Shown here one piece after another: positions 12,743 to 62,261 of a stretch of 64,000 bases of DNA; position 1 is the first letter of the stretch, and the number at the start of each line of letters is the position of its first letter. The translations under genes and the position numbers were made by a program. A model generated the notes under the pieces. The model worked only from the letters and a program-made list of their open reading frames with translations, was not told where the DNA came from and searched no databases. This stretch comes from Terriglobia bacterium (lineage in GTDB: Bacteria; Acidobacteriota; Terriglobia; JAJPHL01; JAPKYU01), in NCBI GenBank assembly GCA_965218055.1, contig CBDCKA010000001.1, positions 840,953 through 904,952 of the forward strand, in the 5' to 3' direction.

Positions 12743-13016
12743 CTGGCTGCCAGACCGCGTTCGTCGTAATCTCGGAAACTCTAACCAACCACTTACATTT
12801 GATCGTCCGCGTCCGGATGCTCCCCGAAGCCTGGATTAGTCGTGTGACAACGACTTGTTACGTCCCGACGGGAGTCGCCGCTGGCGCCGCCTCGCCCCTA
12901 GAATCAGGCCCTTAGAATGAGGTTGGTGCGGTGTTATACTGAAGCTTAGAACTGCAAGCCATTTCATAACGAAAGTTTCGGCCTGCGTTTCAGCGCCGGA
13001 ACGGAAAGGACTTATT

Positions 13017-27161: not shown

Positions 27162-27277
27162 GAAGCTGGAAAGACAACACAAAGACACTAAGACCCAAAG
27201 TTCACGAGGGAAGCGGCATCCCTTTCGACCGCGCGGACTCCTTGGAGCCATCACCAGATTGGTGTAGCCTTGCGCTC

Positions 27278-28173
<896 letters not shown>

Positions 28174-28177
<4 letters not shown>

Positions 28178-29334
28178 GGCCAAGACCCGCAGGGGAGCGT
28201 GGCAGAGGGGCCCAAAGTCAGGGCCAAAGTCAGGCAAAGACACCGGCGGCGCTGGGCTTCCGCCTGCCCGCCGAGTGGGAGGCGCACGAGGCCACCTGGA
28301 TCGGCTGGCCGCACAACCGAAGCGATTGGCCGGGAAAGCTCGCCCCGATCCACTGGGTCTACGGCGAGATTGCGCGGAAACTCGCGCCCGGGGAACTTCT
28401 CCGAATTCTGGTGAACTCCAGGGCCCAGGAGGCGGGGCCACGCCGGCTTCTCACCCGCGTCGGCGTGGATCTCTCCCGCGTCGAGTTCCATCGCTTTCCC
28501 ACAAACCGGAGCTGGACGCGCGACTTCGGCCCGCTGTTTGTTCGCCGCGCCGACCGCGGCGCTGCCCCACACGCAAGCCGCTCGGAAACCGGTGAGGTTG
28601 CCATCGTGCGCTTCCGGTTTAACGGCTGGGCGCGCTATCGGGATTGGCAGAAGGACGACGCAGTGGCCGAGCGCGCGGCCTGCGCGCTCGGCCTTCGTCT
28701 GTTTCACGTCACCAGCGACGGCAACTCGCCGCGCCGGTTCGTGCTGGAAGGCGGCAGCATTGATGGGAACGGCCGCGGCACGCTGCTGACCACCGAGGAG
28801 TGCCTGCTGGATCCGGCCATCCAAGTGCGCAACCCGGGCTTGAGCCGGGAGCAGATGGAGGCGACCCTTCGCGCCTATCTCGGCGTCAGCAACGTGCTCT
28901 GGCTCGGCCGCGGAATTGCGGGCGATGATACGCACGGGCACGTGGACGACCTGTGCCGCTTTGTCGGGCCCCGCACGGTCGTGCTTTGCCGGGAAGACAA
29001 CTCGGGCGACATCAACCACCGGCCGCTGGAGGAAAACCGGGAACGGCTGGAGGCCATGCGGCTGGAGGAGGGGTCTCGGATCGAGGTGGTGCGGTTGCCC
29101 ATGCCCGCGCCGCTTTATCTGGACGGCCAGCGCCTCCCGGCCAGCTACGCGAACTTCTACATTGCAAATGCGGCCGTGCTGGTCCCGACCTTTAACGATC
29201 CTAACGACCGCGTGGCCCTTGGTATCATGGTTGAGCTTTTCCCCGACCGGCCAGTGGTCGGCATCCATGCAGTGGACTTAGTCTGGGGTCTCGGGACACT
29301 GCACTGCTTGACACGCGAGCAACCGGCCAGGTAA
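28174..29334 (+). CDS. aguA: agmatine deiminase
   Basis: 386 aa. Overlaps the aguB stop. FRLPAEWEAHEATWIGWPH N-terminal motif and C-terminal catalytic Cys (TLHCLT). Confidence 0.85.
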
Positions 29335-33882: not shown

Positions 33883-35853
33883 TTAGGGCTGGCAGGGTTC
33901 GACGTCGGTGTTGACTGCCAGGGTGGTGAAGGGAGGGCTGCTCACTCCTCCGATGGTGACAATGATGGGCACCGCCGGCCCTGAGGGGGGATTCTCATTC
34001 TCCTCGGGGATGCGGATGTTGATCTGCCACAGCCCAACGAAGCCGGGCGCAGCCCCGCTGAATTCCACAGTGACCGGAACGCCGCCCAGGGTGACCTGAG
34101 GCAACGTGGGGGTCTCCGACAGTGGGCTGGGGGGAGCGGGCTCGCCGGGAGGCAGCTCCGGCGTCAAAACTCCCTGGCCGGAGCCAAACAACTGCACCAC
34201 CGAGCCCGGTTCCGCCGGCTTGACGCCCGTTAGGCAGCCATCCACCGAGACCAGCGAACCATCTTCGTTGAGCGCCGCCACAGGCCCGAACCCGGTCTGG
34301 GCTCCAACGACCGCATCGTCTACCCCGTGGCTATTTGCGAAAAACGCAGTGAAGGTAGTCTCCGTGACCGATATGACTTTGACGACCTCGGCGTTCGTCC
34401 CTGAGCCAACCAAAAGGTATATGCCGGGGTAAATCCCGGCCATGCTAGCTGGCGCTATCGTGGCCAATCCCGAAGAAGCCACCGGCGTATTCAGGGTAGT
34501 GCTTACCACCGGCGATTGCGAAAAAAGGGCAGGACTGGCCACGCCCAGAATGAGCTCCCCTCGCAGCTGACTGCCGCCTGATGTGAAGACAACAAAGGAA
34601 ATAGTCCGCACTTCGCCCACCTGAAGGTCTTGCGCCAGTTCGGCGGGAATTTGGAAATTGATCTGGGTAGGCGAAACGAAAAACAGCGGCGCATTCAGCT
34701 CCGCGCCTCCGATCCCCTTCCCATCCCCACCCATTTCCAGGCGGACCCTGACACCCGCCAGCGTGTCGAGCAGGGGAAAGCCGGTGGCGACCTCGGTTTG
34801 GCTGGCCAAGTCAGTCCCAAAGCCGGAAACGATCATGCCGGGCGCAATGGAGCCGCCATGGAAGGCGGCCGCGTTGACTACCGTAAAGCTGCTGACCACG
34901 GGAATGTCTATGAGGGCGACGCTGTTGTTGGAGGGTAAAACCACTGCCGTCTGGCGCCCCCCCTGGTTGGTCGCCGCCGCGGTCGGCGCCGTTAGGCTGG
35001 CAACCTGCCCGATTATCTGGCTGGTGTTTAAATCCAGAAGTACCGCCTGATTGGTGGTGTTACTAGAGATGACAGCCGTATTGGTACGGATGTGGATAGC
35101 GACCCCCTGCGGAGACCCAATGGGGACTTCTTCGATCTGCCCGGTACCCAACTTCACGATGGAAATGCTGTTCCCATTGGCATTGCACACCACGGCCACG
35201 TTGGTGACGGGATTGACGGCCACGGCCACCGGGGACGCTCCGACCGTCAGAGTACCGACGACGCGCGCCTCCGCCAGATCCACCAGAATAATGCTGTTCT
35301 GCGCCGGGCTGGCCACCACCGCCACGTTGGTGGCGCTGTTGACCGCCACCGCCTGTACGGCGCCCGACAGCACAGCGCCCGGCAGCACCGGTACGTCGGG
35401 AATGGTGCCCACCACGGCTATGGGAGTGTTCAAGTCAATCAGGGACAGGGAGTCGCTACCGGAATTGGAGACTACCGCGATATGGGTGCTGCTGTTGATG
35501 TCCACGCTCAGGGGCCTGCTTTCGACCGGAACGCGGGTGACAACCTGTAGGGTGGCCAAGTCAATCACCGTGACCTCGTTGCTTTCCGAACTAGCCACCA
35601 CGGCCAGGCCCAACTGGTCGTCCACGGCCACCCCACCCGCCGTAGACACCGATTCTCCCAGCGTGCGCAACTCGAGACTAGCCAGGTCGAGCACGCTCAC
35701 CGAGTTGTCGGCGAAACTACCCACAATGAGCTGATTCCCCGACGGGTAAAAAGCCACACCGCGGGGTACCGCACCAACGGGAATCTGCTGCGCTTCTTGC
35801 GCAAGAGCCGACACACTCGCCAGCGCCAGAAAGCAGCAAGCCAGGATCCTCAT
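33883..35853 (-). CDS. secreted YVTN beta-propeller protein with two C-terminal 'Solibacter-type' uncharacterised C-terminal domains
   Basis: Within ORF 33883..35889 (TTG). ATG at 35853 gives the signal peptide MRILACCFLALASVSALA. Repeated ~40-residue units (VAVNPVTNVAVV...), then two copies of the pattern AAAFHGGSIAPGMIVSGFG...FFVSPTQINFQIP, resembling TIGR03437-type domains. Confidence 0.75.
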   Translation of the reverse strand: MRILACCFLALASVSALAQEAQQIPVGAVPRGVAFYPSGNQLIVGSFADNSVSVLDLASLELRTLGESVSTAGGVAVDDQLGLAVVASSESNEVTVIDLATLQVVTRVPVESRPLSVDINSSTHIAVVSNSGSDSLSLIDLNTPIAVVGTIPDVPVLPGAVLSGAVQAVAVNSATNVAVVASPAQNSIILVDLAEARVVGTLTVGASPVAVAVNPVTNVAVVCNANGNSISIVKLGTGQIEEVPIGSPQGVAIHIRTNTAVISSNTTNQAVLLDLNTSQIIGQVASLTAPTAAATNQGGRQTAVVLPSNNSVALIDIPVVSSFTVVNAAAFHGGSIAPGMIVSGFGTDLASQTEVATGFPLLDTLAGVRVRLEMGGDGKGIGGAELNAPLFFVSPTQINFQIPAELAQDLQVGEVRTISFVVFTSGGSQLRGELILGVASPALFSQSPVVSTTLNTPVASSGLATIAPASMAGIYPGIYLLVGSGTNAEVVKVISVTETTFTAFFANSHGVDDAVVGAQTGFGPVAALNEDGSLVSVDGCLTGVKPAEPGSVVQLFGSGQGVLTPELPPGEPAPPSPLSETPTLPQVTLGGVPVTVEFSGAAPGFVGLWQINIRIPEENENPPSGPAVPIIVTIGGVSSPPFTTLAVNTDVEPCQP

Positions 35854-36089
35854 AGCAGCTATTTTGACCTGCCCAACCAGCGCGGACAAGGACGAAAACG
35901 GGCGGCAGGTGAATTACTTTGGCACACTGGCGCCGAACGCCCGGCACTAGGTGGACGGGGCGGCCTCCTCGATTCCATGAGCCGGCAGCAGAGTGATTCG
36001 ATAACGGGCGCGACCGGCGCCCCATCCCGCCTCGTGGAGCAAGCCAGGCAGCGAACCCGCTCGGGAGCCCTAAAATCTCACTCAAATCT

Positions 36090-36178
36090 TTACGAATAAA
36101 AATTTTCGATGGGGGTCATCGGAACGTTCGATTGGCCAGGACACCCCGCCTGTGGTCAACTGTGTAGCCTGAGCGCGA
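36090..36178 (+). promoter_or_regulatory. conserved ~85-nt cis element upstream of PII gene (copy 1)
   Basis: ttacgaataaaaattttcgatgggggtcatcGGAACGTTCgattggccaggacaccccgcctgtggtcaactgtgtagcct. About 85% identical to 37585..37662 upstream of amtB. Contains the palindrome GAACGTTC. Confidence 0.4.
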
Positions 36179-36203
36179 GCGCGTTTGCGGCGCTGGATCA
36201 TAG

Positions 36204-36554
<351 letters not shown>

Positions 36555-36815
36555 CGCTTTTTAACTGTTCTGCGGACAGCCTCAAATCGGCAGCGCTGCT
36601 TTTTGACCGCTGCGCTGGGGCGGCCCTGTGCCCGATGCCCGTGTTTTGTTTCTAGCTCTACTTTCCACACTGGCATAATTGCATAATTATTCCTCATAAT
36701 AGGAAAACCTAATCACGCCGATTCAAAAAACCGTCTTGCTTCGCGCTCCAATTATTCCGTAACGTTAGAGATGACAAACACAAGAGTCGTCACATGAACA
36801 TTAAGGAGACTGACA

Positions 36816-37580
36816 ATGGCAAAACTTTTGGTCCTGGTTTTGGTGGTGCTGGGGACGGTCCCCGCTGCCTGGGCTGGCGAACCAGCTGAGGCTGTGAGCG
36901 AAGCGCCAGCAGAGGACGAAAAGCCTTGGAGTCTGTCTTTCGACAGCACGTTCGTAAACAAGTATATCTGGCGCGGCCAAAACCTGAACAACAACGCGTC
37001 GTTCCAACCCGGAATGTCGTTCAGTTACAAGAACCTCACGATATCTTCGTGGAGTCAATTCTCGCACACGAGCTTTGGCGATAGCGGTGTGGCCGGTAAC
37101 CACTGGACCGAGCATGACCTCACTGTTGACTACGGCTTTGCGCTCAGCGAAAAGTTGTCTTTGAACGTGGGCTGGATTAATTATGCGTTTCCGAACCTGG
37201 GAGAGGACCGCTACACGAACGAGTTCTACGCCGGCATCAGCGCCGACACGATTCTCCAGCCGAGCTTCAGCATCTACGGTGACCCGCATCAGGGCGAAGG
37301 CCTCTACTACAACCTCGGCATCGGTCATGGCCTGGACCTGGGCAACGGCTTCGGTCTCAGCTTGTCAGCTGCGGCCGGTCTGAACCAGGGCCAGTGGATC
37401 GACATCACGACGGTTTCCGATGTTGTGCTCGGGGTCGGCCTAGACATTCCGGTCAGCGATAACGTCACATTGTCCCCGTTCTGGAACTACATCACGGGCA
37501 ATGACAGCCTGAGAAGGGGGCCGGACGGGTTCTTCTTCAGCGGTCACCTTGCAGGGGCGAATCTGAACATCAGTTACTAA
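36816..37580 (+). CDS. predicted outer-membrane beta-barrel protein (copy 1), genetically linked to PII/AmtB
   Basis: 254 aa. Signal peptide MAKLLVLVLVVLGTVPAAWA. Alternating amphipathic beta-strands ending in an aromatic residue (..ANLNISY). 80-90% identical to 39685..40443. Confidence 0.7.
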   Translation: MAKLLVLVLVVLGTVPAAWAGEPAEAVSEAPAEDEKPWSLSFDSTFVNKYIWRGQNLNNNASFQPGMSFSYKNLTISSWSQFSHTSFGDSGVAGNHWTEHDLTVDYGFALSEKLSLNVGWINYAFPNLGEDRYTNEFYAGISADTILQPSFSIYGDPHQGEGLYYNLGIGHGLDLGNGFGLSLSAAAGLNQGQWIDITTVSDVVLGVGLDIPVSDNVTLSPFWNYITGNDSLRRGPDGFFFSGHLAGANLNISY

Positions 37581-37584
37581 TCCC

Positions 37585-37662
37585 CATTCGCGGATAAGAA
37601 TCTCTGATGGCTGTCATCCGAAGGTTCGATTTGCCAGGACACCCCGCCCGTGGTTAACTGCG
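37585..37662 (+). promoter_or_regulatory. conserved ~85-nt cis element upstream of amtB (copy 2)
   Basis: ttcgcggataagaatctctgatggctgtcatccGAAGGTTCgatttgccaggacaccccgcccgtggttaactgcgttgcct. Paralogous to 36090..36178. Confidence 0.4.
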
Positions 37663-37691
37663 TTGCCTAACAATTTGCAGGGGGGAGAACG

Positions 37692-39038
37692 ATGAAGAAA
37701 CGAATTGCAACTCTTCCGCTTTGGGTGGCCGTCGCTGCTCCGGCGCTGCTGGGACAGGAGGCGCCCGATATGGCCCAGCTCCAGGCAGAGATAGCCGCTG
37801 CTCAGTCGGCCGGCGACAACGCCTGGATGTTGGTGTGTTGCGCCCTGGTGCTGATGATGACCGGGCCTGGCCTGCTGTTGTTCTACGGCGGCCTAGTGCG
37901 CAGGAAGAACGTGCTGGGCACCATGATGCAGTGCTTCATTCTCATGGCGGTGATCAGCGTGCTCTGGGCCGTGGTCGGCTACAGTCTTGCCTTCGCGGAA
38001 GGAAACGTGTTTGTGGGCGGCTTGGATCATGTGTTTCTCCGTGGCGTGGGCATGGAACCCAGCGGCTACGCCGGCACCATTCCTCATTACACCTTCATGT
38101 TGTTTCAGCTCATGTTTGCGATCATCACTCCGGCGCTGATCACCGGGGCCTTCGCCGAGCGCATGAAGTTCAGCGCCATGCTGCTGTTCATGGTGCTCTG
38201 GTCGCTGGTTGTCTACGCCCCGCTGGCTCACATGGTGTGGGGCAGTGGCGGGCTGCTGGGCTGGGGAGGGACGATCCCGGCGTTCGACTTTGCCGGCGGG
38301 ACGGTGGTCCACATCTCTTCCGGCGTTTCGGCGCTGGTCTGCGCGCTGTACCTGAAGGGCCGGCTGGGCTACGGGAAGGTGCCGATGCCGCCGCACAGCG
38401 TGGTGTTGAGTATCATCGGCGCTTGCCTGCTGTGGGTGGGCTGGTTCGGATTCAACGCGGGCAGCGCGCTGAACGCCGGAGGCTTGAGTGCGAGCGCCTT
38501 TGCCGCAACGCACTTCGCCACCGCCGCCGCCGTCCTGGGCTGGGTGCTTGCCGAATGGTTGCGCAACGGCAAGCCCGGCGTGTTGGGCGCCATTACCGGG
38601 GCCGTAGCCGGCCTGGTGGCGATCACCCCGGCCGCCGGCTTCGTGACCCCCATGGCAGCCATCTTTATTGGCTTCAGCGCCGGGGTGATCTGCTACCTGT
38701 TTGTCGGAATTCTCAAGCACCGCCTGGGCTACGATGACTCGCTGGACGCCTTCGGCGTGCACGGCGTTGGCGGCACGCTCGGCGCCCTGCTCACCGGGGT
38801 GTTCGCCACCACGGCTGTCAATGCCGACCTGCCACATGGCGGCCTGGTGGACGGCAACCCCGCCCAGATTCTCAACCAGGCCGGCGCCGTGCTGATCACC
38901 TGGGCGTTGGCAGCCGTCGGAACCTTGATTCTGCTCAAGGTGGTGGACCTGCTGATAGGAGTCCGTGTCTCGGAAGCGGATGAAGTGCAGGGTTTGGATA
39001 TTACCCAGCACGGCGAGCAGGGCTACGTCATGGAATAA
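37692..39038 (+). CDS. amtB: ammonium transporter
   Basis: 448 aa. Signal peptide plus 11 TM helices. Amt/MEP motifs (DFAGGTVVH, FGFNAGSAL). Confidence 0.95.
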   Translation: MKKRIATLPLWVAVAAPALLGQEAPDMAQLQAEIAAAQSAGDNAWMLVCCALVLMMTGPGLLLFYGGLVRRKNVLGTMMQCFILMAVISVLWAVVGYSLAFAEGNVFVGGLDHVFLRGVGMEPSGYAGTIPHYTFMLFQLMFAIITPALITGAFAERMKFSAMLLFMVLWSLVVYAPLAHMVWGSGGLLGWGGTIPAFDFAGGTVVHISSGVSALVCALYLKGRLGYGKVPMPPHSVVLSIIGACLLWVGWFGFNAGSALNAGGLSASAFAATHFATAAAVLGWVLAEWLRNGKPGVLGAITGAVAGLVAITPAAGFVTPMAAIFIGFSAGVICYLFVGILKHRLGYDDSLDAFGVHGVGGTLGALLTGVFATTAVNADLPHGGLVDGNPAQILNQAGAVLITWALAAVGTLILLKVVDLLIGVRVSEADEVQGLDITQHGEQGYVME

Positions 39039-39089
39039 ACCTATGCGCCGGCCGGCACTCAAGGGGGCTAAGCCGGCGCTGCATCGTAG

Positions 39090-39440
<351 letters not shown>

Positions 39441-39684
39441 CGCTTTTTAACTGTCCTGCCGCCAAACGTTAGGGTAACGCTCTGAATAGACTTCGTTCCG
39501 CGCCCGAAGCCCGTGTTTTCTATTTAGCTACCTCCAAAAACGCAGGTAATATGGTATTTTCTGGTCATAATAGCAACGCCTGGTCCCATAATTAACAGGA
39601 CACTATTACTTTTACACCACTTTTTACTTAATATTGGAGATTTCGCACAAAGGCTCTATCTAATGAGGTTGGAGGAGAAGAGTT

Positions 39685-40443
39685 ATGAAGCTGATCCCTT
39701 GGGTCATGGCATTGGTGGCCATTACAGTCACTGTGAGCGCCGCAGATTTGCTGGGGCAAGACGCCACACCGGCGCAGGCCGACAAACCCTGGAGCCTGTC
39801 CTTCGACGCCACGTTCGTAAATAAGTATATCTGGCGCGGCCAAAACCTGAACAACAACGCATCCCTCCAGCCCGGACTGGCTTTCACTTACAAGAACCTC
39901 ACGGTTTCTTCGTGGAGTCAATTCTCGCATACAGGCTTCGGCGATAGCGGCGTGGCCGGCAACCACTGGACCGAGCATGACTTCACTGTTGACTACGGCT
40001 TTGCGCTCAGCGAGAAGATCTCTGTGAACGTAGGCTGGATTAATTACGCGTTTCCGAATTTGCAGGATGGCCGCTACACCAACGAGTTCTACGGGGGCAT
40101 CAGCGCCGACACGATTCTCCAGCCGAGCTTCAGCATCTACGTTGACCCGCATCAGGGAGACGGCGTCTACTACAACCTCGGCATCGGTCATGGTCTGGAC
40201 CTGGGCAAAGGCTTTGGTCTCGGTTTGTCAGCTTCGGCTGGCCTGAACCAGGGCCAGTGGATCGACATCACGACGGTTTCCGATGTGGTGCTCGGGGTCA
40301 GCCTAGACGTTCCGGTCAGCGACAACGTCACGTTGTCCCCGTTCTGGAACTACATTACGGGCAATGATAGCCTGAGGACGGGACCGGACGCGTTCTACTT
40401 CAGCGGCCACATCGCGGGGGTGAATCTGAACATCAGCCACTAA
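39685..40443 (+). CDS. predicted outer-membrane beta-barrel protein (copy 2)
   Basis: 252 aa. Signal peptide MKLIPWVMALVAITVTVSA. Paralogue of 36816..37580. Preceded by an AT-rich 245-bp spacer. Confidence 0.7.
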   Translation: MKLIPWVMALVAITVTVSAADLLGQDATPAQADKPWSLSFDATFVNKYIWRGQNLNNNASLQPGLAFTYKNLTVSSWSQFSHTGFGDSGVAGNHWTEHDFTVDYGFALSEKISVNVGWINYAFPNLQDGRYTNEFYGGISADTILQPSFSIYVDPHQGDGVYYNLGIGHGLDLGKGFGLGLSASAGLNQGQWIDITTVSDVVLGVSLDVPVSDNVTLSPFWNYITGNDSLRTGPDAFYFSGHIAGVNLNISH

Positions 40444-40844: not shown

Positions 40845-43243
40845 ATGTCCACAGAACTAACCCGACCGCAAAGAGCCACGGAACTGGGCCGACCGCTAGG
40901 AGAGGAGGAGCTTGCCGACGAAGCACTCACCCAGGCACTGTCTCATGCACACGCCCAGAAGACCGATGTGCTGGACCTTCTGGTGGTGGAAAAGAAGTTC
41001 AGCGAGGAGGCGGTGGCCGAAGTCCTTTGCCCGGCGGATGCGGCTGCCCCGGGTCAATCTGGCAGCCACCGTTCCGGAACCGGATGCCATCAAGCTGGTG
41101 CCGGAAGGGATGGCCCGCAGGCACCAAGTCGTGCCCCTGAAACTGGAAAACCGCTCCCTGGTGGTGGCTATGGCCAACCCCGCCAACATGGACGCCCAGC
41201 GTGACATCGAGTTCTCCACCGGAAAGACCCTGAAGATCCTGGTGGCGACCCGCACGGAAATCGTGGACGCGCTGGAGAAGACCTTCGCGACGGGCGAAAT
41301 GCTCAAGGACTTCCTGGAAAATATCAGCGACGTCCACAATTTCGAGCTGGTGGAAGAAAGCAAGGCCGAGGAGGTCGATCTGAAGGATTCTTTGGGCGGA
41401 GCGGAGTTGCCACCGGTGGTGAAGATGGTGAACCTGGTGGTGTACGACGCCATCCGCAATCGGGGCAGCGATATCCACCTTGAGCCGACGGTCAATGATC
41501 TGAAGGTCCGGGTGCGGATCGACGGCGTGATGCGCGAGTTTATGCAGCTTCCCAAGTGGGTGTGCCAGCCTGTGGTCTCGCGCATCAAGATACTGGCAAA
41601 ACTGGACATCGCCGAACGGCGCGTGCCCCAGGACGGCCGCCTGAAGGTGGCCATCGAGGGGCGGAACGTGGACATGCGCGTCTCCACCTTGCCCACCCAC
41701 CTGGGAGAGAAAGTGGTGATGCGCATCCTGGGTTCGGGGCAGGTCCCCAAGATGACTGAGCTAGGCTTTGAATCCGAGGATTTGGAAGCAATCCTGGGAG
41801 CGACGCAGAATCCCCAGGGTATGCTGCTGGTGACCGGCCCCACCGGCAGCGGCAAGACAACCAGCCTCTACTCGTTGTTGAATCATCGCAAGAGCCCGGA
41901 AGTAAACATCATCACTGTAGAAGATCCGGTGGAGTACCAGTTACCGGGGATCAACCAAGTTCAGATCAATCCCAAGGCCGGGTTGACCTTCCCTGCCTGC
42001 CTGCGCTCTAGCCTGCGCCAAGACCCGGACATCATTTTGGTGGGGGAAATCCGAGACCAGGAAACGGCCGAAGTGGCCTTCCACGCCTCAATGACCGGCC
42101 ACCTGGTGCTCTCCACCCTGCACACCAACAGCGCGCCGGCCACCCTCAGCCGCCTGCTGGACCTGGGTGTGGACCCGTTTGTAGTGGGTTCCACGGTGAT
42201 CCTGGTGATGGCCCAGCGACTGGCGCGGGAGGTGTGCCCACACTGCAAAGTAAATTACTCTCCGCCCGAGATGGTGCTGAAGCGTCTGAACCTGCCTGCC
42301 GACGAGGTGTACTTTCGCGGCGCCGGGTGTCCTCAGTGTAGTTTTTCCGGTTTCTCCGGCCGAACTGGCATCTACGAGGTGCTACAGGTGAACCCGGCCG
42401 TGCGCGAGCTATTAACCGAAAAGCGCCGGAAGCGGAAATCCGCAAGGTGGCCGTTCGTAGCGGAGGATTTTCCAGCCTGCTCCAGAAAGGGCTGGCCAAG
42501 GTGAGAGCAGGTTTGACCACGCCGGACGAACTGCTGCGGATCCTTCAGGTCGAAGAAGAGGAGGTAGCCGCCTGTCCAAATTGCCGTGCCCAAATCGACC
42601 CGGATTTCACCGTCTGCCCTTATTGCAGCCGGTCTCTAAAGTCCGTCTGCCGCGAGTGCCGGCAGCAGCTCCGTCCTAAGTGGACAATCTGTCCATATTG
42701 CGGCACTCCCGCTGAGGAGTCAGAAGCGGCGGCCGGGGGGCGGATGCCTTCCTTGGCGGACACAACGGGCTCGGCCATGCCGACTCGTCAGAATCACCCT
42801 CCGACCGCACCGGCCCCCGCCTCGTCCGAGGTCACAGCGGACCGGGCTCAGGCACCTGCTGGCTCCCCTGAGACAACCGCTTCTCCGGGGAAGACACCGG
42901 AAGCCGCTTTCGTTCCGCCCCGTTCCACCAAGCCCCCCAAGCAGGTGAAGATCCTGGTAGTGGACGACGATCCCTCCATCTAGATTGTCCTGCGCAAGAG
43001 CTTGGAGCAACTGCCGTTGCCCTCTGAGATCTTCACTGCCTCCAGTGGAGGAAGTACAGCCGGACCTGATTCTGTTGGACGTGATGATGCCTGAGGTCGA
43101 CGGCTTTACCGTGTGCCAAAAGCTGCGGGAAAACGTGCGCACCACCTTTATCCCCATCATCATGCTCACCGCGAATCCGGATGAAGAAAATCGCACTAAG
43201 GGCTTTCTCGTGGGCACAGACGACTACATGAATAAGCCGTTCC
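40845..43243 (+). pseudogene. GspE/PilB-like secretion ATPase fused to a double zinc ribbon and a receiver (REC) domain; disrupted by 2 frameshifts, 1 in-frame TAG and a 3'-truncating deletion
   Basis: T2SSE_N domain MSTELT...EEAVAEVL then a +1 shift (extra T near 41016-41018) into ARRMRLPRVNLAAT... Walker A GPTGSGKTT and tetracysteine CPHC...CPQC are present. A -1 shift near 42423 (aag|cgcc) restores ...EIRKVAVRSGGFSSLLQKGLAKVRAGLTTPDELLRILQ. That frame runs on without a stop into CPNC..CPYC / CREC..CPYC, a Pro/Ala linker, and KILVVDDDPSI-TAG(42981)-IVLRKSL...DLILLDVMMPEVDGF...YMNKPF. Confidence 0.7.
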
Positions 43244-52049: not shown

Positions 52050-53600
52050 CGGCCCGACCACTTCTGAGCACCTAAAATTACCCTCTCTCCTGGGTCGCTA
52101 GCCGTCTGGCAGCGGCAGTGCCGAGATCGTTCGCAGCATGCTGCTGAACAGCCTCCGGCTCAAGTGCCCTTCGGCCAGCAAAAGCCAGTAATATCGTGCA
52201 TGTTTCACCAGCCGTCCGCCCGTTTTCACCAGCCGCTGCTGCAAACTCGTCAGCGACCAGTTGTTGATCCTCTTCGGTAGCACCAGCCGCCGCCACAGGT
52301 TTCCCAAGTTGTAGGCGATCAGGCTCAGCCATAGGCGCACCTCGTTCGACCGAAACCGATGGCAACTCAGCCGGGTCATCTTTACCGCCTGCTTGCCTTC
52401 CTTGATCCATTGCTCTGCGGTGCCCCGCTTGTTGTAGAACCGGACCACCGCCCGGCTGTCGGTCTCCAGATTGGTGACGATGAACCCCACGCGAGGGAAC
52501 AGTTCGCCAAAGTGGAACTCCACCTTCGCCACCACCCGCCGCGCCTTTTTCCAACTGGCTGCCTGGTAGAGAAAGCTCTTGTACCAGACCACCGGCTTGT
52601 GGCTCGGTCGCCCCACTGACCGCGTCAACAACTCCGCGATGTCCCTCTCCAGACTGTCGTTGGCCGGGATGCGAATCGCATACTTCACGTCCCGCTCCTC
52701 CAGTGCGTCGTAGATCTCCGGCTTGGCGAAGGCGGCGTCGGCGCGAAACACCGCTTCCTTGCCCAGCTTCTGCTGCCGTTCGATCTCTGGCAGGAGAAGT
52801 TCTTCCCAATCCTCGGCGCTGTGCACGTTGCCGGGTCGCAGCTTGGCCGCCAGACAGTCACCCTCGCGACTGAACAGCAACAACGGGTGATAGCAACTCG
52901 ACTCGAAATGCCCGTTGTAGGCGCTCTGTTCCTGCTCCCCGTAGACCGGGATCTCGGTGCTGTCCATGTCCAGCACCACCCGGCGCGGCGCATCCATAGC
53001 TTCCGCCCTGGCGATCAAATCCCGGTTGATCGCTGCCAAACCAGCAAGGTTCTCGTCTTGCGTCAGCAGTTCTGTCTCGAACGACTGTAACCGGGAAGTC
53101 AGGGCTGCGCCACGTTCCCAGATCTTCTCCGAACCGATCAGCCGGAACGTCGGATCTTGGGAAAGCCGCTCGGCGTCGTTGACGTCTTCGTATCCTGCCA
53201 AGCGGCTGTAGATGGACTGCCGCAGCAAGTCAGCGAGGGGCAACCGGGTGTTCTTCCCCCGAGAGTCGATCAAGTGCTGTTCGATAAGTTCGCCGAACCC
53301 CAAACGTTCGTCCAACTCGCGCACCAGAATCAGACCGCCGTCGGAAGTGATTCGCGATCCCTGAAATGTGACCCGCAGAAACCGGTTGAATGACAGTTGA
53401 AACGCCTGTTTTTGGCTCTCACCCATTCGGTGTACACCTCCGGAAGGCAATGTTGATGCTGGAACCCGCATCAATACTGACGTTGGAGTCATTCAGAAGG
53501 TTGCCGCCGATAGTTCATAAAGGAAATCCGGGCTTAGAATGCTGGAAGACCTCCATCGCTAGCTTGTACGCCAGTTGATAAGCTTTCAGATCCCGATGTC
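52050..53600 (-). mobile_element. IS1380-family insertion sequence (ends approximate)
   Basis: Single DDE transposase ORF with about 100-170 bp of flanking non-coding sequence. It sits between the Avd-like gene and the gspD 3' end. The terminal inverted repeats could not be defined confidently by eye. Confidence 0.55.
52098..53426 (-). CDS. IS1380-family DDE transposase
   Basis: Within ORF 52098..53492. Start MGESQKQAFQLSFNRFLRVTFQGSRITSDGGLILVRELDERLGF is the characteristic IS1380 transposase N-terminus. DDE region ...VVLDMDSTEIPVYGEQE... Confidence 0.85.
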   Translation of the reverse strand: MGESQKQAFQLSFNRFLRVTFQGSRITSDGGLILVRELDERLGFGELIEQHLIDSRGKNTRLPLADLLRQSIYSRLAGYEDVNDAERLSQDPTFRLIGSEKIWERGAALTSRLQSFETELLTQDENLAGLAAINRDLIARAEAMDAPRRVVLDMDSTEIPVYGEQEQSAYNGHFESSCYHPLLLFSREGDCLAAKLRPGNVHSAEDWEELLLPEIERQQKLGKEAVFRADAAFAKPEIYDALEERDVKYAIRIPANDSLERDIAELLTRSVGRPSHKPVVWYKSFLYQAASWKKARRVVAKVEFHFGELFPRVGFIVTNLETDSRAVVRFYNKRGTAEQWIKEGKQAVKMTRLSCHRFRSNEVRLWLSLIAYNLGNLWRRLVLPKRINNWSLTSLQQRLVKTGGRLVKHARYYWLLLAEGHLSRRLFSSMLRTISALPLPDG

Positions 53601-53664: not shown

Positions 53665-55941
53665 TTACTCGCTCTCCTGCCTGAGCGCCTTGCGCAATTC
53701 CTTCAATTTGTCGTGGAACTCCTTGGTGGCCATCTTGGCCTCGCCCATGTCCTTGATCACCCTGGGCGTGAGCAGGATGATCAGCTCGTTGCGGCTGGTG
53801 GAATCGCGGGTGGTGCCGAACAATAGCCCCAAGCCGGGAATGCGCCCTAACAGCGGCACTCGATTGGTGGAGACGATCCGGGTTTCCGAGATGATGCCGC
53901 CCAGGGCAATGGTCTCCCCGTCCTGCACCGTCACCTGAGTGGACACGGAACGCTTCTGGATCGAAGTCAGAGTGCCGCTGCTGGTCGGCAAGCTGACTTC
54001 CTGGTCGATACGCAACGTCACCAGCCCGCTGGGATTGATGCGCGGTGTCACCGACAGGATCACGCCGGTATCCCGCCGCTGGTAGGAACTGACAGGTGAG
54101 ATGGTCCCGAAGGCTACACCCTGCTGAGTCTGGATGGGAATCTCCTGTCCTACCTGGATGCGCGCCTCGGTGTTATTGCTGGCCAAAAGCGTGGGCGCGG
54201 AAAGCACCCGTGTGCGTCCCCGGTTCTCCTGGGCATTCAGGAACAGGAACAACTCGCGGCTGCGGCCTATCAAGGTGCCCACCGAAGCGCTCAGGCCGGC
54301 GTTAGGAAACGTCTCCGTCCCGAAAGCGCTGAATTGCCCAACGGGATTCCGGGAGGCGCTGCTGCGCCGCTGGAGGAACGCTTCGACCCCGAAGGACAGC
54401 GCCCCCGATAAGGTGACCTCGTACACCTTGGCTTCAATGAGCACCTGCCGGGGCGCCACGTCCAGCTCCTTCAGGGTCTCAAGGATGACTTCGTAGTCCT
54501 GCGGGGTAGCCTGGACGACCAGGGTATTGTTGATGGGGTCCGGAACAATGCGCGCCGGACTCTGCAACATTCCACCCGGCACAGCAGCTATGAAGATTTG
54601 CCTGGAACCCCGGTACATAGAACCCCGCGATGTTTGGCCCACCCCGCCGACAGGAAACGACACACCTCCGGGCGTCATTCCTCCACCAGCCGATCCCATC
54701 CCGCCGGGCGGTATCATCCCCGGCGCCGCCATCCCTGGCGCTGTCATCCCGGGCGCCGACGCTCCTGTTGCCTCCGCACCCATCATCGGCCGAGCTGCTC
54801 CGTAAAGGCCCGCCAATACGAAAGCCAACTCCCCCGCCGCCCTGTTTTCCACCTTGTAGGCAAAGTTCTGCAGTCCCCCACGGCGCACGGGCTTGTCCAG
54901 CTTCTCAATCCACTGCTGCACTTCCGAGTACACCTCGGAATTCGGAGTCGCCACCAGGATGGAGTTGATTCGCTCCAGTGCAATAAACCGCACCGCCGAG
55001 CCTTCCTTCGAGAGGGCATACGCCTTGAAGATTTCCTCCAGGTCCTTGACCAGGCTGCTGGCCTGGCTGTTCTCGATGGCAAACAACCGGACCCGCTGCT
55101 GCTCCAGCGCCGAGGTGTCAAACAGGTTCACCATCTCCATTAGCCGCTTCAGGCTGCGGCTGGTGTCGGTGATGAGCAGGATGTTGCCCGGCTCGTGGGT
55201 CACGATGTGGCCCGCTTCCGACAGGTAGCTGCTCAGGATTTTCGACATATCCGCGGCGGTGACGAAGCTGAGGGCGACCACGTTCATCACCATGCGGTCA
55301 TCAGGCGGCAGGCTGGCTCCAGTGGGATCCTGGGTGAGCGGTAGCGGAACACGCGGCGCTCCCTTCAGGGGCACGATCCGCCAGAAGCTGCCGCTCTGGA
55401 CGGCCGAGGCCCCGTTGGCCCGCAGGATGGCCTGCAGCAGGGGCAGCAGGTCCTCATGACTCAGGTTGCCCAGGGTGTTGATGTTCACCACACCCTTCAC
55501 CCCAGGGTCCACGACATAGTTCATCTTGAGTTCGGCGGCAATGATCCCAATCACCTGAAGCAGGTTGGCATTCTCCAGGTGGAGGCTGATGCGCGCCCCA
55601 GCTCGCGTCTTCTCCGTTGCCGGTGCCGCTTCCGCCTCCTGCGCGGGAGGCTCTGCCGATGGCTGGTCTTGAGGCTGGGCAGTCGGTTGTTGCGGTTCCT
55701 GAGCCTGAGGCTCTGTCGGTTCCCCCTGCGCTGGCGGCTGGACCGATTGCTCGGTTTGAGACTGCGCAGGTGGTTGCGCGGGTTCCTGGACCGGCGCGGC
55801 CTTCCTCGGAGTGCTGCCTGCGGCGACCGTCGACATCAGCCCCCAAGCTGCTAAAACTAGGACGGCGCTACCCAGTTGGCCTCTCAGTACACCGGATGTG
55901 AAATTCTGCATCCTCTTCATGGTTCGTTTTATTCGGCTCAT
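53665..55941 (-). CDS. gspD: type II secretion system secretin GspD
   Basis: Within ORF 53665..56007. Start MSRIKRTMKRMQNF. Signal peptide, Pro/Gln-rich linker, N0-N3 domains, and secretin domain ...GETIALGGIISETRIVSTNRVPLLGRIPGLGLLFGTTRDSTSRNELIILLTPRVI. Confidence 0.9.
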   Translation of the reverse strand: MSRIKRTMKRMQNFTSGVLRGQLGSAVLVLAAWGLMSTVAAGSTPRKAAPVQEPAQPPAQSQTEQSVQPPAQGEPTEPQAQEPQQPTAQPQDQPSAEPPAQEAEAAPATEKTRAGARISLHLENANLLQVIGIIAAELKMNYVVDPGVKGVVNINTLGNLSHEDLLPLLQAILRANGASAVQSGSFWRIVPLKGAPRVPLPLTQDPTGASLPPDDRMVMNVVALSFVTAADMSKILSSYLSEAGHIVTHEPGNILLITDTSRSLKRLMEMVNLFDTSALEQQRVRLFAIENSQASSLVKDLEEIFKAYALSKEGSAVRFIALERINSILVATPNSEVYSEVQQWIEKLDKPVRRGGLQNFAYKVENRAAGELAFVLAGLYGAARPMMGAEATGASAPGMTAPGMAAPGMIPPGGMGSAGGGMTPGGVSFPVGGVGQTSRGSMYRGSRQIFIAAVPGGMLQSPARIVPDPINNTLVVQATPQDYEVILETLKELDVAPRQVLIEAKVYEVTLSGALSFGVEAFLQRRSSASRNPVGQFSAFGTETFPNAGLSASVGTLIGRSRELFLFLNAQENRGRTRVLSAPTLLASNNTEARIQVGQEIPIQTQQGVAFGTISPVSSYQRRDTGVILSVTPRINPSGLVTLRIDQEVSLPTSSGTLTSIQKRSVSTQVTVQDGETIALGGIISETRIVSTNRVPLLGRIPGLGLLFGTTRDSTSRNELIILLTPRVIKDMGEAKMATKEFHDKLKELRKALRQESE

Positions 55942-55954
55942 CTCAGATTCTGCC

Positions 55955-56752
55955 TCATTGGGTTTTCTGCGCCGCCGGGAGATCCTCATACCAGGTCTGT
56001 ACGCCAAATGGCGTTACCCGGTCGTATCTCTTCCGGTTACCTTCGACGGTGACGGTTAAATAGCGATCCCCGGTGGGGGAGCCGGTCGCTGGGGCGACAG
56101 CGGGAGCGGTGGCGGCTCCTGGGGTGGGTGTAGACGCCGGCCCTGCAGAAGAAGCTGAAGGGGCAGCCGGAACAGCGGTCAACACCTGGTCGGCCGCGGT
56201 GCCGGCCGGGCGGGCGGGCCGGACTGCGGCCCGCCCGGCGGCCTGGCGCACGTTTTCGGCTGATTCGTAGACATCAATGGTGGTCTTCTGGCCCTCGAAT
56301 TCGATAATCACCTGGTGCTCGGCGATTTCCGCCACGCGATAGCCACCGATTTCATCGCCCACCTTGAGCCGGCGGAATGTGGCCTGCCTGGCCTGTTGCG
56401 GCTCGGCCATCAGGGCCACCGGACCGCTGCCGAGGTTCACGGTTCCAATCACCAAGGGGACCGGCGGCCGGACCTTGGATACGCTTGCCAACGCCTGGTC
56501 GTTGTTGCGGTCGGGGCTGAACAGGTTGCGGGTAAGCAGCACGGAGTGGCTGTCCGGGACAGCCGCCAGTCCAGCTTCAGGCATGCCTGCTTTGGACACA
56601 CCTGCCCAGGGGGTGGCTGCTGAGGTCACAAACTGCTTGTAGCGGGCATGATTGCTCTGCCAGGTATCGTGGATGGCGGCAGCAACCCACACCGCCAGCG
56701 TCAAGAGGGCCAGGTTAAGATAGGTTATCGGTTTGCGCATGCTTTCTCTCAC
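55955..56752 (-). CDS. T2SS accessory protein (GspC/GspN/PilP-like), single N-terminal TM
   Basis: 265 aa. TM helix ITYLNLALLTLAVWVAAAI, then a periplasmic domain and an Ala/Pro-rich tail. Located between the gspM-like gene and gspD. Confidence 0.5.
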   Translation of the reverse strand: MRESMRKPITYLNLALLTLAVWVAAAIHDTWQSNHARYKQFVTSAATPWAGVSKAGMPEAGLAAVPDSHSVLLTRNLFSPDRNNDQALASVSKVRPPVPLVIGTVNLGSGPVALMAEPQQARQATFRRLKVGDEIGGYRVAEIAEHQVIIEFEGQKTTIDVYESAENVRQAAGRAAVRPARPAGTAADQVLTAVPAAPSASSAGPASTPTPGAATAPAVAPATGSPTGDRYLTVTVEGNRKRYDRVTPFGVQTWYEDLPAAQKTQ

Positions 56753-57411
56753 GATTTGGGAGTTGGCGCGGGCTCGGCGAACATCAGCCCACGAATCACC
56801 ATTCGCACCGTCACCATCTTTTGTGGCTTTTGTGGTTTTTGTGTCCGACCGGGACGCGAGGGCAACGCCCTAATGGAGAGCTGATCCAGCGCCAGTACCT
56901 TGCGACTGGCGTGGGCAGCCAGCAGAAAACTCGTGAGCTGGTCCAGCCTGCATTGGAACGACAACGACAAGGGCACGACGTTATAGCTCGCCCCGGCGAC
57001 CTTGAGAACCCGCACCGGCCGGAAGGCGGCGTTGCGCATTTCCATGCCCTGCTTCGCCATCAGTTGCTTGATCACTTCCTGCAACTCGGCCGCAGCCAGG
57101 GCCGACGTGCTGCTGCTCAGCAGGCCTTTCTCGGCTTCAGCCAGACGAGCCTGCATTTCCTGAAACTCCTTTTTCTGATCTGCGGCCAGGGCTACAAGTC
57201 GCCGGTATTTGCGCAGGGTCTTCTCCTTCAGTGGCAGCGAGGCACGGAGCTTCTCGGCGGGGTCCATGACGGGCAAGACAAGCAAATCCAGCAGCAGGAA
57301 CAGAGCAGTGGCAGCTGCCAGCAAGAGCAGAGCCCGCTGGTCTCGAGCGCTCAAAGAACGCAAGAAAGACGCAGCTGTCGCTGGCTCCCTCTTCCTGCCT
57401 CCGTTAGTCAT
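56749..57411 (-). CDS. gspM: T2SS protein GspM-like
   Basis: 220 aa. One TM helix (ALLLLAAATALFLLLDLLVL) plus a coiled coil. Overlaps the gspL stop. Confidence 0.6.
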   Translation of the reverse strand: MTNGGRKREPATAASFLRSLSARDQRALLLLAAATALFLLLDLLVLPVMDPAEKLRASLPLKEKTLRKYRRLVALAADQKKEFQEMQARLAEAEKGLLSSSTSALAAAELQEVIKQLMAKQGMEMRNAAFRPVRVLKVAGASYNVVPLSLSFQCRLDQLTSFLLAAHASRKVLALDQLSIRALPSRPGRTQKPQKPQKMVTVRMVIRGLMFAEPAPTPKS

Positions 57412-58939
57412 GACTGGCCACCTCCTCCGCTCGTGCCTGCGTCTCCCGCAACCGCATCCGGATCTGGAAGGCCTCCCGCCCTTGTTTGTTCTTGGTGATC
57501 GCGGTGATGAATTCCGGCTGTTGGAAATGCGGCGACTGATTGATGGCCTGTAGAATGCCGGAAGCGGATTGGGCTTGCCCGGAGGCCGTCACCTGGTTAT
57601 CCTTAAAATGGAGTGTTTGCAACCAGGCCGTATCGGGAACCAGGCGAGTTAGTTCCTTCCACGCCTCGAGCCTGAGCGCGATATCCTGCCGCTGGCCCTG
57701 TAGCAGATCCCATTTCAACAACAGCGCCTGGTGGCGGGAATTCAGCTGTTCCACATGCTCCACATGGGGCTGCAACTTGCTGATCTCCGAGTTCAACCAG
57801 GAGGAATAGAAGCGGTCCTGCACCCATGTGGTTGCGAGCCAGGCAGCGCCGAGCAACAGCACAAGTACCACCAACGCATAGGCCGACGCATGTGCCCAAT
57901 GGGAGCGCCAGTGAGATCGCCAGTGAGAGCGGTAGCGCTTCTCCGCCGGCAGCAGATTCCAGCGCAGGCCGGGGGGGGAGGCCAACCCCGGCAGGCGGAG
58001 TTCGAGCTCTGGCAGGGCCGCCGCGTAGGCCACAAGATGCTTTCGGAGGTGGAACTCCGCTGGCCCCGCCTCGGGAATGACCACCGGAATATCCTCTGCC
58101 GAGGACCGGTTCGCTGGTGCAGAGTCTTCTGCTGCCGGTTGTTCTCTGACTTCCGATTTTTGCGCGATGACTTCGCCAGTTTCTAGCAGCGGCGGACTAT
58201 CCTGGGGATCGAGTCGCAACTCGGCCACGCAAAACTCCACTTCGCGCTCGAACGAGGTCGTAGCCGCAACTTCTTTAGAGTAGAACGAGCCATCGGGTGC
58301 GACTCCCAGCAGTTCCAGAACTTGCCCGCAGTGATCCATCAACAACAGCGGGCGAGGCAGTCCTGGCTTGTTCCGGCCCCGATGGAAGGAAGCCCCGCGC
58401 AGCGCCTGGTACAGCACGGCTGTAGAAAGGGTGAAGCCGGCCACGTCCACGCCCGCCTGGCAGAACCACTGGTAGAGCTGATCGAGCGCACTCTTCTCCA
58501 CAAGCGCTACAGCCACCCGCAGCCGCCTTCCGAGGCCCTCCTCCGAGGCGCCGGTCCCATTGCCCGCGCCGCGCGCAGGCGATTCGGGCAGCAGCGCGTA
58601 GTCGAAATAGACGCTGCCTTCCTCGAAGGGGTGGAGCTGATCTACCTGGTAGGCCACCGTCTGCCTCAGTTCTCGCCCAACTTCGGGGGGCAATTCCAGC
58701 GTTCGCACCAGGCCGGCTCCGCGCGGGAGCGCCACCAGCGCGCTGGTCGTCAACGCATGATTCTCTTCGCGGAAGCGCCGGTACTGCTGGGCCACCTCGG
58801 CCACCGGCCGGGTGCGGAAATCCTCAATCCGGAGGAATCCGCTGACCCGCAGGCGACGCCCGCGGCCGCGCAGGGAGACGGCTTCCAGGTGACTCCCCCG
58901 AATTGCAATGCCGATGCTGGTCCCCAGGTGGACGGTCAT
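57404..58939 (-). CDS. gspL: T2SS protein GspL-like (actin-like cytoplasmic domain + TM + periplasmic domain)
   Basis: 511 aa. Position and architecture fit GspL. Contains an RSHWRSHWRSHW tandem repeat before the TM helix. Confidence 0.65.
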   Translation of the reverse strand: MTVHLGTSIGIAIRGSHLEAVSLRGRGRRLRVSGFLRIEDFRTRPVAEVAQQYRRFREENHALTTSALVALPRGAGLVRTLELPPEVGRELRQTVAYQVDQLHPFEEGSVYFDYALLPESPARGAGNGTGASEEGLGRRLRVAVALVEKSALDQLYQWFCQAGVDVAGFTLSTAVLYQALRGASFHRGRNKPGLPRPLLLMDHCGQVLELLGVAPDGSFYSKEVAATTSFEREVEFCVAELRLDPQDSPPLLETGEVIAQKSEVREQPAAEDSAPANRSSAEDIPVVIPEAGPAEFHLRKHLVAYAAALPELELRLPGLASPPGLRWNLLPAEKRYRSHWRSHWRSHWAHASAYALVVLVLLLGAAWLATTWVQDRFYSSWLNSEISKLQPHVEHVEQLNSRHQALLLKWDLLQGQRQDIALRLEAWKELTRLVPDTAWLQTLHFKDNQVTASGQAQSASGILQAINQSPHFQQPEFITAITKNKQGREAFQIRMRLRETQARAEEVASHD

Positions 58940-58982
58940 TTCCGATACGCTCGCTTCTTCAAGTCCTCGTTCATAGCCCAGT

Positions 58983-60029: not shown

Positions 60030-60031
60030 TT

Positions 60032-60754
60032 TCACCGGCTCGCTCCGGCGATGCTCAAGCGCGCGTAGAGAGGCACCGGCTCCAGGCCCCTCCACGTGGC
60101 TTCTTCCGCGCCCACCTGTAGGGCGACTGCCGCGGGCATCTCCCTGCGCTCCAATAACGACCAGGAAGATACCCACCGTGCCAGATCGGGCCGTTCGTGC
60201 CGGTACTGGAACCGGCACTCGCGGAGTCCTTCCCACAGCAGCAGGGCCCGCTCTGTGTCAAAGGGACGCAGCTGCGGTTGGTCCCCTTCCGGAGTGCGCA
60301 GCAGGTCCACCACCACGCCAGCCAGCTGCTCGCTGTCGAGCGCCTGCCGCTCTTCGAGCCACAGCTTCCAGGTCCGGTCACGTTGCCGCTGGGCGAAGTA
60401 GTCGGCCACCACGATGCCTCCCCGTCCGCGCTCCAGCGCCGAATACGAGGTCAGAAAGACCAGGCGGCGCTCCTCGGCAAAGAAGAACGGCATCTGCTGG
60501 CGCCGGTTGGGTGACTCCACCACGATGTTCCGCAGCAGGTGGTTGGAAAGCTGGAAATGCAGGATGTCCTCCACCTGGGTCACCCGGCGCAACTGCAGAA
60601 CCGCCTGCTGCCCCTTCTCCCAGGCCCGCAGGCCTATCCGCAGCGAGGTGAGAGCCGCGACAGCTACCAGGCCGGCGATGGTGGTGGCGGCCATCAACTC
60701 CAGCAGCGTCAGTCCCGCGCTGCGTTGCTTACTGCGCTGGCAGTAGTGGTTCAT
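60032..60754 (-). CDS. gspJ: T2SS minor pseudopilin GspJ
   Basis: 240 aa. Prepilin-type N-terminus MNHYCQRSKQRSAG|LTLLELMAATTIAGL. Confidence 0.75.
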   Translation of the reverse strand: MNHYCQRSKQRSAGLTLLELMAATTIAGLVAVAALTSLRIGLRAWEKGQQAVLQLRRVTQVEDILHFQLSNHLLRNIVVESPNRRQQMPFFFAEERRLVFLTSYSALERGRGGIVVADYFAQRQRDRTWKLWLEERQALDSEQLAGVVVDLLRTPEGDQPQLRPFDTERALLLWEGLRECRFQYRHERPDLARWVSSWSLLERREMPAAVALQVGAEEATWRGLEPVPLYARLSIAGASR

Positions 60755-61681: not shown

Positions 61682-61715
61682 AATCGTCAATGATTCAATC
61701 CTCAATTCCCCACTC

Positions 61716-62213: not shown

Positions 62214-62261
62214 GCAATTGCTCCTCTGCGCCTCTGTGTGTCTAGTGTCCCTGTGGCTCTC

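Follow-up and report, generated by a model that had tools for sequence, protein, structure and literature searches.

The locus raises a simple question: what is the non-coding element that stands, in two similar copies, before nitrogen genes in a 64,000-nt stretch of bacterial DNA (the window, taken at its full length), and does it have a function? Searches with AmtB and PII place the window in the Acidobacteriota, class Terriglobia. Acidobacteria are among the most abundant soil bacteria, and to our knowledge almost nothing is known about how they regulate nitrogen uptake. The element, of ~75 nt, is a real, selectively maintained, and lineage-restricted cis-regulatory module of amt operons in a group of uncultured Terriglobia; on sequence grounds it may well be a promoter that is complete in itself but depends on a putative nitrogen regulator, whose operator would lie upstream.

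The two copies, E1 and E2 (Table 1), lie where the first-pass annotation had placed them: a repeat-family search delimits them at 36093–36170 and 37591–37668, and MAFFT agrees. The identity of ~85% over ~85 nt given there was slightly generous, the measured value being 82% over 78 nt, ungapped, but the accompanying statement that the element is more conserved than neighboring non-coding DNA is borne out (82% vs. 53–57% for the PII–porin spacers and 31–41% for the 62 nt 5′ of the copies). The 16-mer GCCAGGACACCCCGCC is found once in each copy and nowhere else in the 64-kb window, and a profile built from homologs matches both copies with E ~1e-22. Profile and covariance-model searches of the 64-kb window gave no site beyond E1 and E2, and a half-site pattern gave chance-level matches only; one of these, AACGAAAGTTTCGGC at 12968–12982, with three mismatches, lies in the spacer before a PIN-domain gene at 13017.

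Table 1. Features of the duplicated amt locus and of the element (window coordinates unless a locus is named; E1 and E2, element copies; columns refer to the 90-column alignment).
Feature	Position	Strand	Basis or remark
Beta-propeller gene	33883–35889	−	Upstream neighbor of E1
E1, element copy before PII(1)	36092–36170	+	Two-copy repeat family; profile and covariance-model matches
PII(1) gene, 3′ of E1	36216–36554	+	Pfam P-II, E = 1e-30; 96% identical to PII(2)
Porin-like gene 1 (254 aa, signal peptide)	36816–37580	+	Without Pfam match; paralog of 39685–40443
E2, element copy before amtB	37590–37668	+	Two-copy repeat family; profile and covariance-model matches
amtB (type A Amt), 3′ of E2	37692–39038	+	Pfam Ammonium_transp, E = 1e-118
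PII(2), glnK-like gene	39102–39440	+	Pfam; 96% identical to PII(1)
Porin-like gene 2	39685–40443	+	Weak Gcw_chp match (Pfam)
45-nt imperfect inverted repeat, E1 (columns 6–50)	36092–36136	+	RNAalifold, pair counts; centered on column 28
Inner arms, E1	36105–36112 and 36116–36123	+	3-nt center 36113–36115
45-nt imperfect inverted repeat, E2	37590–37634	+	Inner arms 37603–37610 and 37614–37621
Near-palindrome of the first-pass annotation, ATCGGAACGTTCGAT (ATC-N9-GAT form; columns 32–46)	36118–36132	+	Overlaps right arm of conserved dyad
Candidate −35-like TTGGCCA, E1 (columns 46–52)	36132–36138	+	Proposed from TTKGC conservation
Candidate −35-like TTTGCCA, E2	37630–37636		Equivalent of E1 TTGGCCA
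15-nt spacer, E1 (columns 51–65)	36137–36151	+	E2 equivalent 37635–37649
Block B, E1, GTGGTCAACT	36152–36161	+	Candidate extended −10 (TGn + TNAACT); proposed role
Block B, E2, GTGGTTAACT	37650–37659	+	Read from sequence and alignment
Relic frame	L009 6173–6238; L067 about 3403–3470		TGA overlaps ATG of new amt

The copy number has a structural cause. Three related loci (L009/L011/L012) have a single-copy order of beta-propeller gene, element, amt, PII, and porin; the window is thus a tandem duplication of element-amt-PII-porin from which the first amt has been deleted, and the element occurs twice because the ammonium-transporter operon was duplicated. What had been described as two nitrogen operons is therefore one operon duplicated, and the two copies are not independent evidence. 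At the DNA level the duplicate units are 96% identical in their PII coding sequences and 84% identical in their porin coding sequences, the porin-like paralogs sharing 79% amino-acid identity. The duplicated segment includes almost nothing 5′ of the element, and E2 starts 10 nt after the stop codon of porin-like gene 1. Downstream of E1, similarity to the region 5′ of PII(2) picks up again at 36188; the intervening positions 36171–36187, where amtB was lost from the first copy of the unit, form the junction, a GC-rich insert prone to hairpins (GAGCGCGAGCGCGTTTGCGGCGCT) 3′ of E1.

Evidence beyond the window comes from an alignment of 18 distinct sequences from ~10 lineages over 90 columns (column n is position 36086 + n for E1 and 37584 + n for E2), in which E1 occupies columns 6–84 and which contains no gap. 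The element lies 5′ of amt in L001/L002, with an AmtB 76% identical to that of the window, as well as in L057 and L067–L070, and the sister genomes L071–L076 carry it in the same duplicated layout as the window. A DNA-pattern scan of species-representative genomes located it in three Terriglobia MAGs (L009/L011/L012); among the matches listed for a 20-base pattern in the genome-collection scan were three Terriglobia MAGs and one chance match. Among the 44 matches listed for a 17-base pattern in a metagenome scan, a single metagenome contig (L036) is real, and there the neighboring gene 5′ of the element is rnhA. In L058/L059/L060 a far more diverged form lies between an atp operon and amtB-PII-glnD, matching at 28 of 44 positions with identical spacing. 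The element is absent from the more distant Acidobacteria amtB loci L003 and L004/L005, and no additional copies turned up when ~314 kb of sequence from related loci was searched with nhmmer and covariance models. No sequence 5′ of column 6 is conserved between lineages.

Comparison with the sister locus L071 shows how selectively the element is held. The two loci are 93.5% identical overall, with non-coding sequence at 88–92%; E2 is identical at 76 of 77 positions, above this non-coding baseline, and E1 at 69 of 77, the eight substitutions all falling in family-variable or AT-rich left-arm columns. Core columns have no changes. The earlier proposal of a shared, selectively maintained cis-regulatory element before nitrogen genes is thus supported by its retention 5′ of amt genes in ~10 related lineages. 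Literature searches turned up no published account of an amtB promoter or RNA motif from Acidobacteria; the motif is undescribed, although the kind of element is familiar.

The element has also outlived the gene behind it. It precedes two types of Amt with 31–34% mutual identity. Type A occurs in the window, L001, L036, L057, and L058/L059, and type B in L009, L067, L071, and L065. Between the window (37692–38985, type A) and L071 (6547–8129, type B), Amts that are 34% identical are embedded in flanks that are 93–95% identical. In type B loci a relic of the type A 5′ end sits between the element and the new gene. The relic in L009 and L067 is a 21-codon frame, MKKRIAALVLWAEGRTRGVRK, that overlaps the new amt start as ATGA, an arrangement that allows translational coupling. 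In L071–L076 the start codon of the relic beside E2 has decayed from ATG to CTG, so the relic frame is not universally kept, and in L071 the type B gene begins ~240 nt 3′ of the element end. Because E2 is retained at 76 of 77 positions in front of this dead start codon, its function is not tied to an adjacent ribosome-binding site. The exchange of Amt type at the locus has the look of a gene replaced through recombination. In L065 a relic of the porin N-terminus precedes the type B gene instead, and transposases surround the locus in L062–L066. Since the element stayed while the transporter was swapped for a distant paralog, what has remained constant at this locus is the control region and not the gene.

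Within the element, the conserved symmetry is centered on column 28, between GATGG and YCATC. Inner arms TTYGATGG and YCATCRGAA flank a 3-nt center of free sequence, and weaker outer arms (GCnGATAAr and yTCGATTkGC) extend the imperfect inverted repeat to 45 nt; with G-T allowed, complementarity is 97% in the inner helix and 86.5% in the outer helix (RNAalifold and pair counts). The right half, CATCSGAANGTTCGATTKGC, is the best-conserved stretch of the element. A derived C at 37619 in E2 (CATCCGAA) breaks one dyad pair; this position is G in the sister genomes and nearly all lineages and A in L067–L070, and the C is the sole non-pairing cell at its dyad position. The first-pass annotation had instead proposed a near-palindrome in both copies as the candidate site of a dimeric regulator. 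E1 does contain it, as ATCGGAACGTTCGAT, but E2 reads ATCCGAAGGTTCGAT, a poor palindrome. Its central base (column 39) differs among lineages (C, G, or A); changes at column 35 are matched at column 21 of the central dyad (CG, UG, UA) and not at column 43, the palindrome partner; and L058/L059 have lost the palindrome. Because its center varies, the GGAACGTTC palindrome is not the conserved symmetry, and the reading of GGAACGTTC/ATCGGAACGTTCGATT as a conserved dimer site gives way to a dyad centered 11 nt upstream.

The right end of the dyad runs into TTKGC, which is kept in all lineages but L058/L059 and lies 17–18 nt before TNAACT. The 15-nt spacer that follows has no insertion or deletion in the 18 sequences, and its sequence is unalignable between lineages. 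Block B then reads GTGRTNAACT in consensus, with A72 and T75 invariant in 18 of 18 sequences, and in 8 of 10 lineages the start codon falls at columns 107–111, ~32 nt past GTGRTNAACT. A candidate ECF-type −35 at GGAAC was rejected, as its variants read GGAAG, CGAAG, AGAAG, and GGAAA, and nothing is conserved 16–17 nt 3′ of it.

Three explanations carry little weight once these comparisons are made. A functionless, passive by-product of tandem duplication is what the two copies resemble if only the window is considered, lying as they do within a longer duplication with nearly identical PII genes; the first-pass annotation had itself named the case of a longer duplication with no conservation at orthologous loci, and the former holds but the latter does not. 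Single copies stand elsewhere: L001 and L057 have one, as do L036, where it follows rnhA, and L058/L059, where it follows the atp operon. The element also precedes both Amt paralogs, it exceeds the paralogous spacers in identity, and its core is unchanged between sister genomes; the orthologous loci rule this reading out, and we give it practically no credence. It is similarly hard to credit a leader peptide, in which the ATG within GATGG would open a small frame whose translation controls the downstream gene. Such frames span 36109–36221 in E1 and 37607–37657 in E2; that of E1 terminates by overlapping PII(1) as ATGA, as the L001 frame does with amtB, and in L009 the frame continues in-frame into amt. 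Against this, the E2 frame stops after 16 codons where that of E1 stays open, the ATG is replaced by ATA in L036 and by AAT in L058/L059, and no ribosome-binding site lies 5′ of it. Substitutions fall at codon positions 1 and 2 rather than 3, a pattern that is not codon-like, so the GATGG frame is probably not coding.

A sigma-54 promoter, alone or with an NtrC enhancer as in proteobacterial glnK-amtB, has in its favor that amtB is a classical NtrC/sigma-54 target; the target genes and the presumed physiological signal are shared, and the window copies contain TGG...TTGC-like strings in and 3′ of block B. Such a promoter is defined by TGGCAC-N5-TTGCW, with GG and GC exactly 10 nt apart and conserved in homologs. 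As the first-pass annotation correctly remarked, the spacing in the window copies is GG-N11-GC and not N10; in addition, GG is missing in L009/L011/L012 (GTGATC) and L057 (GTGTTG), L001 and L036 have GC in the wrong register, and no other GG-N10-GC with TTGC occurs between the element and the start codon. With −24/−12 elements thus absent or out of register, a sigma-54 promoter is refuted for the conserved blocks, and we hold it highly improbable for the element in any form.

The first-pass annotation had left open whether the element is a promoter/operator or a structured leader; the evidence leans towards the former, and gives the latter a smaller share. If the element acts as double-stranded DNA, it would combine the promoter of amt-PII-porin with the operator of a nitrogen-responsive transcription factor. 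The binding site of this factor, as a dimer or tetramer, would be the 45-bp imperfect inverted repeat, with its core TTYGATGG-N3-YCATCRGAA and outer arms GCnGAT...ATTkGC; a weak −35-like TTKGCN would overlap the right end of that repeat; and RNA polymerase would use the extended −10-like TGnTNAACT, 17–18 bp further 3′. Transcription would then begin near column 82 (about 36168 and 37666), leaving a 5′ UTR of ~26 nt that would carry the ribosome-binding site only; the position of the start codon fits such a minimal 5′ UTR. Activation under nitrogen limitation is our first guess, and AmtR-like repression relieved by PII would be equally compatible with the geometry.

Rigidity argues for protein–DNA contacts. 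Columns 6–75 are conserved without a gap in the 18 sequences from ~10 lineages, and the 3-nt center and the 15-nt spacer are free in sequence but fixed in length, a signature of protein–DNA and −35/−10 spacing and not of RNA loops or linkers. Moreover, because E2 follows the porin-like gene 1 stop codon so closely and nothing 5′ of column 6 is conserved, the amtB promoter is either inside the element or absent. The core promoter is not of the consensus type, which has TTGACA-like and TATAAT-like hexamers 16–18 nt apart, with A2 and T6 in the −10: a sigma-70 consensus scan of 35850–39750 gave no sites, and the element itself does not conform. Relative to the −10 hexamer, TNAACT keeps T6 and lacks A2; TTKGCN matches the −35 at three to five of six positions; and TGn precedes the hexamer in most lineages. 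It is this departure from consensus that suggests dependence on a regulator. No regulator gene (TetR, LysR, or other HTH) was detected by Pfam among ORFs of at least 120 aa in the window, which are nearly all of the 56 called. Against a promoter, L058/L059 are without the −35-like TTKGC; the asymmetries of the dyad are nearly all sense-strand G·T, a bias that a strand-blind DNA site does not predict; and four stem positions show three complementary pair types each.

These last features favor the main rival reading, a cis-acting leader RNA on the sense strand, formed by an irregular 45-nt hairpin with conserved internal-loop nucleotides together with GUGRUNAACU. Such an RNA would be bound by a protein or a small ligand reporting nitrogen status, and would control elongation, stability, or processing of the amt mRNA, with E2 working inside a porin1–amtB read-through transcript. 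The sense strand pairs 92% of cells in a 15-pair structure (97% in the inner helix), compared with ~76% when the antisense strand is read; there are 48 G·U cells and 5 A·C cells, or 8 vs. 2 by columns (one-sided p ~0.055). The variable pairs are 20/36 (UG, CG, UA), 21/35 (CG, UG, UA), 25/31 (GC, CG, AU), and 26/30 (GU, GC, AU). Three pairs changed on both sides across the ~10 lineages, but a symmetric DNA site predicts the same pattern, since a protein site of this form also yields compensatory changes in its inverted repeat; likewise, the covariation score lies above all 500 shuffles and all slid controls, but related unstructured sequences are known to exceed a shuffle control. In w2, L009, L012, L057, L067, and L071 the fold of lowest energy is the long hairpin, yet minimum-energy folds differ between homologs, and folding z-scores against shuffles (+0.7 to −4.9, mostly −0.5 to −1.6) are only modestly better than expected.

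Other properties sit poorly with an RNA. The terminal loop and the 15-nt linker never change length though their sequence is free; an expression platform is absent, with no terminator-like site 3′ of the element on the sense strand and no specific SD-sequestering helix, as cognate anti-SD/SD duplexes hardly differ from non-cognate pairings (−13.3 vs. −12.5 kcal/mol); the element is kept in L071 although the adjacent start codon is dead; and no promoter is conserved 5′ of the element, with no space for one before E2. Several alternative structures were likewise rejected: the helix register of the w2 minimum-energy fold (85% paired vs. 92%); a mini-hairpin CGGAACG/CCGAAGG, seemingly compensatory between E1 and E2, which homologs read as CGGAAGG or CGGAAAG; a long-range helix from the upstream C/U-rich tract to the ribosome-binding site, in which cognate pairs have no advantage; and a terminator flagged on the antisense strand at 36121–36107, which is the same dyad, shows poor pairing when read from the antisense strand, and has no gene on which to act.

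There is precedent for an RNA at such genes: the glutamine riboswitches (glnA RNA and Downstream-peptide motifs) lie, in some cases as tandem copies, 5′ of genes for PII, glutamine synthetase, and ammonium transporters (PMC2864571). The element is also non-coding and 5′ of PII and amt in all loci, but would form one irregular hairpin where those RNAs have a three-stem junction or pseudoknot, differs in sequence, and belongs to another phylum. Rfam covariance models gave no relevant match at the gathering threshold across the whole window, nor at E ≤ 10 in 35900–37800. A leader RNA in the general sense is a minority possibility, and the specific version, a novel Terriglobia amt leader that senses nitrogen status (through a metabolite, PII, or a PII partner) and controls the fate of the amt transcript, is slightly more doubtful still. 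Were it true, nitrogen-sensing RNAs would gain a new class beyond the cyanobacterial glutamine riboswitches; a promoter with its operator would be a useful, unsurprising addition.

For the promoter with its operator, the closest formal parallels are two families of DNA sites. The AmtR box, tttCTAT-N6-AtAGaaA, serves in Corynebacterium as the operator for AmtR, a nitrogen repressor of the TetR type, and its half-site spacing is essential (PMC2723105). Likewise located in the promoter region of amtB-glnK-type operons, the element too has an inverted repeat flanked by T-rich and A-rich sequence, TTTYGAT-N7-ATCRGAA (TTTCAAT-N7-ATAGAAA in L058/L059), and combines rigid half-site spacing with a center of free sequence. 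It differs in its core (YGAT/ATCR, or CAAT-N7-ATAG in L058/L059, vs. CTAT/ATAG) and in its spacer, which is 7 in 18 of 18 element sequences vs. 6 in the AmtR box; in addition, it comes from another phylum, its symmetry spans 45 bp, and there is no TetR gene in the Pfam-scanned ORFs of the window. By the pattern CTAT-N6-ATAG, it is not a member of the AmtR boxes.

LysR-type regulators recognize ATC-N9-GAT or T-N11-A, the “nod box” (PMC2794183). The E1 palindrome ATCGGAACGTTCGAT shares the ATC-N9-GAT form of the LysR-type regulators, which include NAC-type nitrogen control; this form is present at columns 32–46 in every lineage but L058/L059, and a weaker AT(A/C)-N9-GAT lies 22 bp 5′ of it. With a start near column 82, the two putative boxes would be centered at about −43 and −65, like activation and recognition sites. 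However, the best-conserved symmetry of the element is centered between them, and two tandem 15-bp palindromes, or a 22-bp direct repeat, were rejected: the best offset is 22 (6 of 7 conserved columns equal), which is not significant when weighed against the A/T-only conserved columns and the ~40 offsets tested, so that the repeat loses statistical support once A/T richness is counted. Nor is a divergent LysR gene found beside the target; the upstream neighbor encodes a beta-propeller protein in the window, and at other loci this place is taken by rnhA, atp genes, or further genes. In form the element resembles both kinds of box; it is not an AmtR box and is probably not a LysR box either. The conserved 45 bp offer a bait for finding the regulator, and the motif offers a means of tracing its regulon in Terriglobia genomes.

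The genes that accompany the transporter merit separate mention. Secreted porin-like paralogs of 252–254 aa invariably follow PII in this clade, and in L001/L002 a BBP2-family porin occupies this position; the porin-like proteins are candidates for an outer-membrane channel co-expressed with the ammonium transporter. The otherwise diverged PII–porin spacers share two short conserved patches (36630–36657/39502–39529 and 36694–36710/39565–39581), which include TCATAATAG, resembling a consensus −10. The porin genes probably have a promoter of their own, and this promoter could read through into E2-amtB.

Further from the element, a carbon-nitrogen hydrolase gene adjoins a gene of the Porphyromonas-type peptidyl-arginine deiminase family (PAD_porph) at 27242–29334; judged by their Pfam families, the pair resembles an ammonia-releasing route from agmatine to putrescine. 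Immediately 3′ of porin-like gene 2, a T2SSE ATPase with an MshEN domain is encoded at 40912–42504. A DDE transposase (DDE_Tnp_1_4; 52098–53492) adjoins a type II secretion/type IV pilus-like cluster (53665–63479) that encodes a secretin, PilN, the T2SS M, K, and F proteins, and pseudopilins.
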